Origin: Amphiscolops sp. MND2022
Lineage: Eukaryota
Length of the DNA stretch: 64,000 nt
NCBI GenBank assembly: GCA_964187785.1
Contig: CAXLNC010001664.1
Location: 1-64,000, forward strand
Direction: 5' to 3'
The notes under the pieces were generated by a model. It saw only the letters and a list, made by a program, of their open reading frames with translations. It was not told the DNA's origin and ran no database searches. The position numbers and the translations under genes are program-made. Numbering within the stretch: position 1 is the first letter of the stretch; the number at the start of each line of letters is the position of its first letter. Below, piece by piece: positions 20,501 through 25,400 of this stretch.

Positions 20501-22444
20501 AAAAGGGGCAGGAGTAAGCTCCCTAGAAGAGGAATGGGGAATCTGCCATGGTGGTTGGAGACGATAGACAAATGTAGTCTTGATGTCTCGTGTAGCACAG
20601 GACTGTGGACTGCATCCAGGTAGGCATCGACGATGTAACGACACCTGCAGATGAGGATCGCACGGTAATGATTCAAGGATCTGATTGGTGTGGGCGTCTT
20701 GCGTAAGACGGCGCACCACTTGAGTTCTCAAAGGAGCATTCTTGCCCAGACCCTGAAAGGTGCGGACTCCAAGATCTGTACGCACCCAACGGCCAAGTTG
20801 AGATGGAGGAACATAAGCACTCATGGCGTGACTGTCCTGCCAATCAGGGATATGTTCCTGTGTGCCAAAAGGCGTAACGGCCAAGGGGCGTTCGTAGGTA
20901 TGCAATTCCAGGTCCACATTTGTAGCATCGGCCTGCACGGGGAGCGGTTCCACCGGCACGTCGTGCGCAATCTGCGTCACCGGCTCTTCATCAGAGGGGG
21001 TAGCAAGCTCCATGTCTTGCCACGCTGGAAGAAAGGTGCGCAAGTCATTAACAAACCATGCCCAACCAAGACCAAGTTCTCGAATATCTTGGACTTCCAG
21101 AGCATCTTCCTTGACGCACTGTTCAACTGTGGGCACATCAAGGTCTTGCAAGTTCCACTTGACTTCTCCCTTACGGTTAACATAAGCAGCGCGGGTGGCA
21201 TCTTGCGGATGCACATGAAGGCGCCAGGCTTGACCTACGCGTTCACCTAGCTTTCTGACTTTGGCTGTACAGACCTCCTTCATTTCGCCATTAATGACAG
21301 AGACAACAAGAACACCACCAGAAATACGGGTGTCATGACCCAAACACACTCCTGTGGAACCGCGATTCTCAAAAGAGGGCGGCTTCTTGAATGCTTGGTG
21401 CATAACAACCACGTCTCCAAAATGTGGCAAAGTCTTATTGATCGGTATCTCTGTAACTCTGTGCGTATGCACGTATGCAACCCAGCGACAAGCGTATGAC
21501 CAATATTCAGGTGGCAAACGAACATCGGCTAAAAGAGCCGTAGCGCGGACTTTTACAATGCCAATCCACCTCTCAGCCAAGCCATTGGCCTGTGGGTCAT
21601 ATCCGGAATTAACCGTCTGTCGCACACCCTGTTGGGACAGATAGGCCCTAATGGAAGGAGAAAGAAACTCGCTAGCCTTATCAGAATGTAACCTAAGAAT
21701 CGGAGGACGAGATCCACCTGTCAAAGCACGTAAGTCCTCAAAACAGGACTGAAGGCATGGCAACACCACAGAAGCTTGACGGCTCTCGACGCCAAATGCC
21801 CACAGCAATCTCATATGGCCAAGAGACCAAACTGCAACAAGCAAGTATTGAGCCATGTTCACTTTGCGAGGGTGTGGACCCGAGAAATCAAACGTGAAAA
21901 CTGGTAGGTGTCTGTTACCAACAATCTTGTGATGATACAGTGGCCCAAGGGCCCGTTTGCAATGATCACAATGTGGATCCCTTACTCCATGATCCATTTG
22001 GTGATAGGGACACGCTTCAATGCCTGTATGATCAAGGTAACCCTGAATGAGTCGAGAAAGGAGTGGTGGCGTCTGTGTCACAACGTCCTTCCCTTCAATG
22101 CGTGTGGCTATGCCAACTGCCTCATTGCCAGGAGGTAACGCTCCTTGATCAGGTTCCAAGTGTGGAGTCACAGGGAGTGAAGGTGTCTCCCCTTCTTCCA
22201 GAGCAGGGGTAGAAGGGGCTGCCTCGGTCGGGGCTTGATTGGGATCAACGATAGCCGGCTCTTCGGGTCTATAGAGAGATGCCCAATCAGATGAGTCTGA
22301 TATGAGTGGCACTTCATCCTCATCACTGATAGCAACGACCGAGTGCAACACAATATTACAACCGCAGTAGTACATACGCACCCCCTCAGCGGCAATTAGG
22401 GGTGCTCGAGTGGCATGAAAGGTAATGCCACTCGAATCCTGATG
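17540..22444 (-). CDS. pol: Element A Pol: integrase, reverse transcriptase, RNase H (in frame after the UGA at 22445-22447)
   Basis: IN zinc motif H-x3-H...CDHC, FDFSG, RLHSDKASEF, NGLAERW. RT KKARIVICGN, WDVSTAFLYA, KALYGL, YVDD. RNase H YCDASF, AEVVAL, KTDS. 21 sense codons link the UGA to the track ORF start at 22381. Confidence 0.95.
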   Translation of the reverse strand, partial: HQDSSGITFHATRAPLIAAEGVRMYYCGCNIVLHSVVAISDEDEVPLISDSSDWASLYRPEEPAIVDPNQAPTEAAPSTPALEEGETPSLPVTPHLEPDQGALPPGNEAVGIATRIEGKDVVTQTPPLLSRLIQGYLDHTGIEACPYHQMDHGVRDPHCDHCKRALGPLYHHKIVGNRHLPVFTFDFSGPHPRKVNMAQYLLVAVWSLGHMRLLWAFGVESRQASVVLPCLQSCFEDLRALTGGSRPPILRLHSDKASEFLSPSIRAYLSQQGVRQTVNSGYDPQANGLAERWIGIVKVRATALLADVRLPPEYWSYACRWVAYVHTHRVTEIPINKTLPHFGDVVVMHQAFKKPPSFENRGSTGVCLGHDTRISGGVLVVSVINGEMKEVCTAKVRKLGERVGQAWRLHVHPQDATRAAYVNRKGEVKWNLQDLDVPTVEQCVKEDALEVQDIRELGLGWAWFVNDLRTFLPAWQDMELATPSDEEPVTQIAHDVPVEPLPVQADATNVDLELHTYERPLAVTPFGTQEHIPDWQDSHAMSAYVPPSQLGRWVRTDLGVRTFQGLGKNAPLRTQVVRRLTQDAHTNQILESLPCDPHLQVSLHRRCLPGCSPQSCATRDIKTTFVYRLQPPWQIPHSSSRELTPAPFPSGGGGSLSLPPDLSSPSLSLLLRGPTFSQFTADGASTDSTFGTQTLLAMRKFLDEMESHHQQGISPSQITVEDTKEGLPECKGEVSAEDLACLQGENSVQGGISRSKAMKLAISAFRTLLHGCEEQWRYATQQDSESGESEAEEVLCQRSSHAMMAKLVSEDDLRDGSPDPEPQRYLCDDWIQPIKVAKKPRTLTARETMKANAAKNCLILTLMSLELGYGTVIERYQQARDAVVERYQHDRPENSSYLASEVLTDEEMLARVDEPTPTVAAITLAPASMPPPTCLLKGKRIGALDQVHAVAVKDSSLKMYHVMSVKQTLREDLAECAYQFSCRAADWTRSDMHAVPMQFEPLELHVVDALGQQEVPDYFQQPAKAITEEVSVMKGPDAQEWIAAVLEEIESFKRLGVYEEVPRSEATSPPLPARLILVTKPNIHGGPARKKARIVICGNFQDVHPDEFTASKTPSYPALRMALSIASHMGWPVECWDVSTAFLYARLFGDRDTDLGGNEIFMRPPKILIDTEVVKDGVVWKIKKALYGLRTSPIAWETERDNTLKSLQWVHDGVSYRLLPCQGSPCLWTVVPIREGEDPCIKSSGEDLTRGVVITYVDDLLFTGFQCHIDALTEALLAKYVMKRSGILPVGTPGMEKLDGIDFLGARITRDADGTIWCDQSKYILHCIRENGFINQDGDVILTRATSPPTVDEKLGEEEGTVREKNNALTQCRKYIGQMMWLTTRTRPDIAACLGILASLMVRRPKEVKNYLVGLWRYLWTTKDHAMCTLPSPNAARKIVVDNRQDDMPPSARDGPLSSSSPLVVQTYCDASFAPGGGRSRTGILVLLVDQSTNRASALLWQSRRQTLTAVSAPEAEVVALSEALMPAIIIHESCRDVGLEVGPSPEVLFIVKTDSQVALTQLRNESVTTRSRPFANKFNYARDMCYGTSMHPASVKAVFEPGKSQKADGLTKVLSGALMKSFVSDLGLAPLIH

Positions 22445-25400: not shown

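Follow-up and report, generated by a model that had tools for sequence, protein, structure and literature searches.

Here we describe a conserved in-frame UGA, followed at a short distance by two abutting RNA hairpins, in a giant retrotransposon, and we argue that it is probably a programmed read-through site, stimulated by the downstream stems, that rations the enzymes of the element against its Gag protein. The element, here called element A, is a Ty1/copia long terminal repeat (LTR) retrotransposon of 24.7 kb. It lies on the minus strand of the first 64,000 nucleotides (nt) of contig CAXLNC010001664.1, from assembly GCA_964187785.1 of Amphiscolops sp. MND2022, and this whole stretch is referred to as the window. 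The UGA separates open reading frame (ORF) 1, which encodes a Gag-like protein, from ORF2, which encodes the integrase, reverse transcriptase and RNase H region (IN-RT-RH, or pol). Comparison of related copies identifies the stop as a conserved family trait and gives strong comparative support to selection on both stems.

A preliminary description of this DNA had placed between ORF1 and IN-RT-RH a Leu codon, a TGA followed by C, a perfect 11-bp hairpin and a second stem, with the frame beyond the stop open into pol. All of these features could be read directly from the minus strand (Table 1). The ORF that ends at the UGA (25939-22445) and the one that follows it (22444-17540) form a single frame, which stays open for 1634 codons after the stop and contains Pfam rve and RVT_2 matches. 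Counting the U of UGA as +1, the spacer measures 9 nt in this copy. The outer U13-A42 pair of hairpin 1 is peculiar to this copy; the conserved stem 1 therefore has 10 bp and starts at +14, which makes the spacer to it 10 nt. Hairpin 2 adjoins hairpin 1 without a gap, and its terminal U-G pair is weak and not conserved, leaving a conserved core of 7 bp. The codon after the UGA is CAU here, followed by CAG, and other copies mostly read UGA-CNA. An Rfam scan of the window returned no family, the selenocysteine insertion sequence (SECIS) included, at the gathering score; a hammerhead match near the junction (E 4.3) was at chance level and was discarded.

The junction fold of element A is not due to chance. 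The region +4..+70 folds with z = -5.0, and none of 200 shuffled sequences folds as well. The same holds for 833 70-nt windows away from the site, taken by scanning both ORFs, and for 2000 synonymous recodings of the junction, of which none reaches its stability. In the 24.7-kb element no perfect hairpin is longer than hairpin 1, and one other reaches 9 bp.

Related proteins were collected with a junction query carrying X at the stop, which gave 12 clusters of 1539-4899 residues, and with a search of shorter proteins, from which the best 120 of 338 were used. Among these 132 A-family proteins, 59 match upstream of the junction only, 69 downstream only and 4 on both sides; no long cluster among the 12 extends across it, though a fusion of ~4,050 residues falls within their size range. 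The preliminary description had named a sense codon in other copies as the mark of a one-off nonsense mutation. Of 62 proteins that reach the junction (66-99% identical), 55 end exactly at the stop, five are frameshifted or deleted there and two cross it in frame as short decayed ORFs, with Trp (P0109) or Ser (P0044) in its place and the downstream peptide kept. Both residues are one base away from UGA. A further upstream match, P0013, ends before the junction by a frameshift and stands outside the 62, and a search of 50% representatives (best 150 of 2634) added four proteins that end at the same place. Three full ORF1 clusters were counted by their representatives, behind which stand 27, 124 and 5 members. 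The related proteins look like mechanical gene calls, which also start at GTG or TTG, and thus they inform on stops in DNA rather than on expression. At the nucleotide level, 7 copies show T-N-A at the stop, and the Trp and Ser copies point to UGA; 11 of 12 informative copies have C at +4, and at least 4 of 9 have A at +6. A scan of GTDB genomes for stray copies found none, and an Atlas search returned RVT_2 clusters with uninformative taxa.

Evidence for selection on the stems comes from 16 peptides of decayed, frameshifted copies, from which bases were back-translated, residues in the -1 frame fixing the third positions of the pol frame. In stem 1 the third positions are constant at +15 (G, 10/10), +18 (U, 10/10) and +36 (C, 11/11), and +21 is C or U, either of which pairs with G34. 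Position +39 fits U throughout except in P0258, which has C there and G at +16, so that an A-U pair has become G-C by a double change. Wobble changes convert C-G to U-G in two copies and A-U to a probable G-U in one. Stem 2 behaves alike: +69 is G in 8/8, +45 is A or G opposite U68, and the pair 49/64 has changed from C-G to U-A in P0109 and to U-G in three others. In the spacer and loops every third position is variable. At fourfold sites, 44 of 49 stem cells fit the window base, compared with 146 of 296 elsewhere (Fisher p 4e-8); such p-values are optimistic, since the cells share ancestry and the peptides were partly chosen by likeness. Conservation of the UGA and covariation of the stems, which the preliminary description had proposed to look for, are thus both found, with compensatory and wobble changes in the two stems as read from peptides.

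The stretch after the stop varies as coding sequence would. Loop 1 precedes every in-frame AUG, and in it 10 of 30 third-position cells depart from the most frequent base, as against 2 of 30 first-position cells (p 0.02). Six copies align over the hairpins without gaps, starting at the stop in five cases and at +12 in the sixth, and no stop is forced in 141 codons. This pattern of variation favours read-through over initiation at the downstream AUG.

Two further elements of the window, B and C, which face in opposite directions, carry the same UGA and hairpin as each other between ORF1 and pol. They had been described as unrelated to element A. With 34% identity in the 2-oxoglutarate (2OG)-Fe(II) oxygenase-like domain, 39% in integrase and 38% in reverse transcriptase-RNase H, A and B/C are instead distant homologues by sequence. 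The proposed match in the position of their UGAs extends to domain order and no further: the domains on either side fail to align, the final ORF1 domains of A and B/C showed no homology when their profiles were compared (hhalign probability 2.1%), and +4 is U in B/C, where a Cys motif, a thymidylate kinase and more lie between the stop and integrase. Of 113 B/C matches, 36 reach the last ORF1 motif; 32 of these end at the stop, one has Ser and three are frameshifted. The residue before the stop is Cys in 19/32 and Gly or Ser in 13/32. B and C are 79% identical over 8 kb, and their longest identical run, 55 nt (52109-52163), spans the UGA. Fourfold sites between them are identical in 9/9 cases within +1..+60 against 469/962 (49%) overall, a run of 12 existing elsewhere. 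A Cys-rich peptide after the UGA is conserved in 24 B/C proteins and precedes the first in-frame AUG, which is codon +58 in C and +38 in B. An AUG overlapping the B/C stop was rejected as a pol start, being out of frame with pol and opening only 19 codons.

Several observations weigh against stimulated read-through. P0214 breaks pair 22-33 of stem 1, P0258 breaks three pairs of stem 2, and pair 50-63 of stem 2 is not conserved. A42, the third position of an Arg codon (22406-22405 region), is fixed without a conserved partner and forms part of an invariant AG at +42/+43. The frame ranges of the 16 peptides were set by eye, their cells are non-independent and the peptides were partly found by window likeness; the A- and B/C-family matches share one source label and may derive from few assemblies. 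The B/C hairpin is unlike that of A and weak (z -1.6 and -1.0), with 17 of 2000 recodings as good. A similar-looking UGA and structure in Tca2 of Candida albicans gave no read-through in a yeast reporter (PMC2194720). Finally, the first in-frame AUG of element A lies 2 nt after stem 2, and its column holds Met in 51 of 63 proteins, of which 47 are predicted starts and may be GTG or TTG. Lying where the two stems meet, the invariant AG could be a hinge or a splice acceptor.

The AUG and the AG would be accommodated if ORF2 were made separately from codon +24, by reinitiation or from a spliced-leader (SL) trans-spliced or internally promoted RNA, the hairpins then serving processing or initiation: Met prevails in the column directly behind stem 2, and the AG is unexplained by pairing. 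Dinoflagellates are also known to trans-splice multi-gene transcripts (PMC11453091), and Tca2 has a weak junction promoter (PMC2194720). However, 12 of the 63 proteins have Ile, Val, Leu, Thr or Lys at the AUG column, loop 1, which lies upstream of the AUG, varies as coding sequence does, frame and distance to the stop are kept, and in C the first in-frame AUG comes 58 codons on, behind the conserved Cys motif. A free Pol would moreover need its own route into the particle. We regard separate synthesis of ORF2 as unlikely. Even less probable, in our judgement, is a basal leak due to UGA-C alone, with the hairpins kept for packaging, protection from nonsense decay or pausing. Conservation indeed shows selection and not function, the B/C structure is different and weaker, and Firth et al. 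still observed ~1% read-through without the stem (PMC3159437). Yet nothing in the 8.4 kb of coding sequence folds more stably than the structure 9-10 nt past the only internal stop, and the most conserved stretch of B/C is also at its stop, without a +4 C.

A minor cis-splice that removes the stop and fuses ORF1 to pol would find a G-T right at the A stop, with G at position 0 in 7/7 informative copies, a last B/C codon (Cys, Gly or Ser) compatible with a kept GT, and a precedent in Drosophila copia, which uses splicing (PMC2194720). The would-be intron nevertheless varies like coding sequence and keeps its length, and the AG at +62/+63 lacks conservation and its use would put pol out of frame, which makes this account very improbable. 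We give slightly less credit still to a selenocysteine reading of the UGA, in which the hairpin would act as a redefinition element of the SEPN1 type. A selenocysteine UGA with a stem 6 nt behind it is known (PMC3159437) and Cys precedes the B/C UGA in 19/32, but the sense copies of A and B/C have Trp, Ser and Ser and never Cys, no redox motif is found in A, and 13/32 B/C proteins have Gly or Ser before the UGA. The Rfam scan found no SECIS in the window at the gathering score, at which a divergent protist SECIS could be missed. That the UGA is a one-off nonsense mutation, an assembly error or a general sense codon of the host is close to negligible. This copy does carry errors or mutations, as four frame changes in ORF1 attest, but the shared end of 55 of 62 copies refutes a one-off event. 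Against general sense UGA, the 2800 codons counted in A include 44 TGG codons for Trp and one internal TGA, C has 54 TGG codons and one internal TGA, and in several dinoflagellates TGA is the most frequent stop (PMC3229502).

For programmed read-through stimulated by the 3' stems, then, the following course may be proposed. An LTR-driven RNA would be translated through ORF1. Most ribosomes would stop at the UGA, yielding abundant Gag with a putative protease and a 2OG oxygenase, while a minority would accept a near-cognate tRNA, by analogy one for Trp, Cys or Arg, insert its amino acid and continue into IN-RT-RH. The resulting fusion of ~4,050 residues would be packaged via its Gag part. The leakiness would stem from UGA plus C and from the two abutting hairpins 9-10 nt downstream, near the mRNA entry channel of the ribosome. 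What we infer here is the read-through as such, a higher rate owing to the structure, the tRNA involved and a stacking of the two stems.

The mechanism itself is of a known kind. In-frame UGA read-through sites have been described in LTR retrotransposons such as Tca2 (PMC2194720) and Tj1, Tosmo and Tcry (PMC10085805). Tca2, also a Ty1/copia element, is alike in its in-frame UGA, short spacer and predicted 3' structure, and makes pol from a gag-pol RNA as proposed here. It differs in that the stop ends gag, the 8-nt spacer is purine-rich and the structure is a predicted pseudoknot that fails to give read-through in S. cerevisiae (PMC2194720). Element A in turn has two covarying hairpins, a +4 C, a stop after a protease-like motif and a 2OG domain, and a dinoflagellate host. 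The fission yeast elements Tj1, Tosmo1-3 and Tcry1 share a conserved in-frame TGA followed by C, reportedly essential for transposition in Tj1. They belong, however, to the Ty3/gypsy group, the stop separates Gag from protease, reverse transcriptase and integrase, and the signal is a local 8-nt context, with no 3' stem in the text consulted (PMC10085805). The stop of element A probably does not lie at the Gag/protease boundary as in the Tca2/Tj1 type, an assignment that depends on the motif Asp-Ser-Gly (DSG) of ORF1 being the protease.

Among viral signals the best reading, by analogy, is a Type II-like one as in alphaviruses. Type II signals (alphavirus, furovirus, tobravirus, coltivirus and Drosophila kelch) share the UGA, the +4 C and a stem after a spacer of 7-9 nt, as well as synonymous-site conservation and compensatory changes, which are read here indirectly from peptides (PMC3159437). 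Their consensus next codon is CGG or CUA against CAU in this copy of element A, the UGA-UGG of B/C fits an exception noted for a furovirus (PMC3159437), and element A has short local tandem hairpins instead of one stem with a long loop. The Type I context of tobamoviruses, CAR-YYA, was rejected, the element reading CAU-CAG. The preliminary description had favoured a gammaretroviral model. Its central notion, that the leaky UGA is conserved and the 3' structure functional, finds strong comparative support in the conserved stop and stems; the gammaretroviral model does not hold. Moloney murine leukaemia virus gag-pol (Type III) is alike in having a stop, a spacer of ~8 nt and an RNA structure that rations enzymes (PMC8310308, PMC3159437), but its UAG-G and its compact pseudoknot set it apart, as probably does its position upstream of the protease; codon, context and pseudoknot are unshared (PMC8310308, PMC5009743). 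The sole pseudoknot candidate found by eye in element A, pairing loop 1 with the G-run at +63..+69, was rejected: it needs four G-U pairs and competes with stem 2. Its position +24 takes three different bases among copies and its position +27 at least three.

Table 1. Features of elements A, B and C in the window (positions relative to the U of UGA in brackets)
Feature	Position	Strand	Remarks
5' LTR of element A	29243..30212	minus	from self-BLAST; 970 bp, TG...CA
3' LTR of element A	5513..6482	minus	970 bp, 99.6% identical to 5' LTR; preceded by purine tract
ORF1	22448..29721	minus	Gag-like coiled-coil, CCCH finger, DSG motif, 2OG-Fe(II) oxygenase-like domain, helical C-terminal domain
CCCH finger of ORF1	~25141-25079	minus	
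DSG protease-like motif of ORF1	24850-24842	minus	assigned by motif and position only
2OG-Fe(II) oxygenase-like domain of ORF1	~24094-23852	minus	weak, E 0.0009, below Pfam cut-off
Candidate read-through UGA between ORF1 and IN-RT-RH	22447-22445	minus	Leu codon before, C after
Spacer	22436..22444 (+4..+12)	minus	9 nt; length constant, sequence variable except C at +4
Hairpin 1	22435-22406 (+13..+42)	minus	perfect 11 bp here, 8-nt loop 22424-22417; 10-bp core conserved
Hairpin 2	22405-22378 (+43..+70)	minus	7 Watson-Crick pairs and one U-G, 12-nt variable loop
First in-frame AUG after the stop	22373..22375 (+73, codon +24)	minus	common, not invariant, among copies
ORF2	17540..22444	minus	integrase, reverse transcriptase, RNase H region; copia order; ends TAG
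UGA and hairpin of element C	52118..52165, UGA 52118-52120	plus	+4 U; bulged hairpin ~52125-52158, possible basal extension
UGA and hairpin of element B	35171..35218, UGA 35218-35216	minus	same UGA and hairpin as C

Element A was inserted recently at the RNase H end of B. Its two LTRs each contain an exact 16-nt relic of the dinoflagellate SL (~30100-30085 and 6370-6355, minus strand), by comparison with the published leader (PMC5585692), and from this relic the host of the element is inferred to be a dinoflagellate. Such a relic is expected if the RNA of the element is SL trans-spliced and the leader copied into the LTR. The bases after the 5' LTR appear to resemble the half-tRNA-Met primer site of Drosophila copia. 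The start of ORF1 (29721, minus strand) lies inside the 5' LTR, so that ORF1 crosses the LTR end and the primer-binding region, where the LTRs differ by one base. Beyond the 3' LTR there are short AT-rich repeats; neither the remainder of B nor a target-site duplication was seen (30206-30212, 5513).

ORF1 is a single protein of 2281-2421 residues in other copies; the four frame changes of this copy are relative to P0010. In ORF2 the integrase zinc finger starts from 22012, rve covers residues 200-284 (E 8e-5, below the Pfam cut-off) and RVT_2 residues 1070-1212 (above it); integrase upstream of an RVT_2-type reverse transcriptase is the Ty1/copia order. The DSG motif, a putative protease by sequence, follows the CCCH finger, is the sole D[ST]G in the 2799 residues translated across the junction and is invariant across elements A, B and C. 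For its region the Atlas gave leads only (0.84 and 0.81); a low-confidence model (predicted local distance difference test 55) had no Foldseek match at E 0.001, the best Z being 3.9, and no PDB sequence matched. The stop lies ~800 codons downstream of the DSG, also after the 2OG domain.

Downstream of pol, the interval up to the 3' LTR (17539-6881, minus strand) holds a DEAH/DEAD helicase ORF recognised by Pfam (17463-11863), followed by two more overlapping ORFs (11897-9645 and 9676-6881) without a Pfam match. A degenerate SL-like stretch directly after the pol stop (17539-17520) suggests a captured mRNA or an internal trans-splice site.

In B and C a thymidylate kinase domain (PF02223, above cut-off) precedes integrase (52430-52880, plus strand; 34880-34440, minus strand); it is followed by a PHD-like Cys motif, and many homologues carry the kinase domain. 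ORF1 of C (~49800-50600, plus strand) and the matching part of B show C5 cytosine methyltransferase-like motifs by eye (PPC, EHP), a region with no Pfam match. The 2OG-Fe(II) oxygenase-like domain, with HxD, occurs in all three elements (24094-23852, minus strand; 51008-51505, plus strand; 36328-35837, minus strand). Dinoflagellate TET/JBP enzymes produce 5-hydroxymethyluracil (PMC11572971). Between the head-to-head B and C lie 600-bp direct repeats, 88% identical (41273-41874 and 44479-45081), whose orientation is the same although B and C face opposite ways.

Compared by description only, the Symbiodinium copia elements SmTCL1-4 are alike in dinoflagellate host and IN-RT-RH order; SmTCL3 measures ~10 kb against 24.7 kb for element A, and the text consulted describes no internal stop or recoding for SmTCL (PMC5776459). 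Captured DNA-modifying domains, as proposed here, are known from DNA methyltransferase (DNMT)-bearing Symbiodinium LINE and DIRS elements, and Symbiodinium copia elements are stated to lack a DNMT domain (PMC5890265); a methyltransferase in B/C would in that light be new, if confirmed. It is conceivable, though doubtful, that A, B and C represent a clade of giant dinoflagellate copia elements with a recoding site between the protease region and integrase. The protease and the captured DNA-modifying enzymes would then be made at capsid level and could mark new cDNA in the particle, IN-RT-RH being rationed by the UGA. The captured enzymes would be the 2OG-Fe(II) oxygenase, which might write 5-hydroxymethyluracil, and the methyltransferase-like region of B/C. 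On this view the stop would predate the divergence of A and B/C (reverse transcriptase ~38% identical) and would have been kept while a different RNA stimulator took over.

New here are the host group and a tandem-hairpin stimulator with natural covariation, and probably also the position downstream of protease and 2OG oxygenase. In the literature searched, largely open-access papers, there was no report of read-through in a dinoflagellate retrotransposon, nor did the text consulted of the dinoflagellate papers PMC5776459, PMC5890265, PMC3229502, PMC11453091 and PMC11572971 mention a stop of this kind. The 70-nt junction is a compact cassette with natural compensatory variants, suited to a reporter, and it bears on the open question raised by Tca2 of how copia-type elements pass an in-frame UGA. 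Such elements can be scored as dead because gene callers split them at the UGA, though the stop is a family trait. Dinoflagellates are thought to regulate little at transcription; the junction of element A, if our reading is true, would be a programmed read-through site in a dinoflagellate nucleus.

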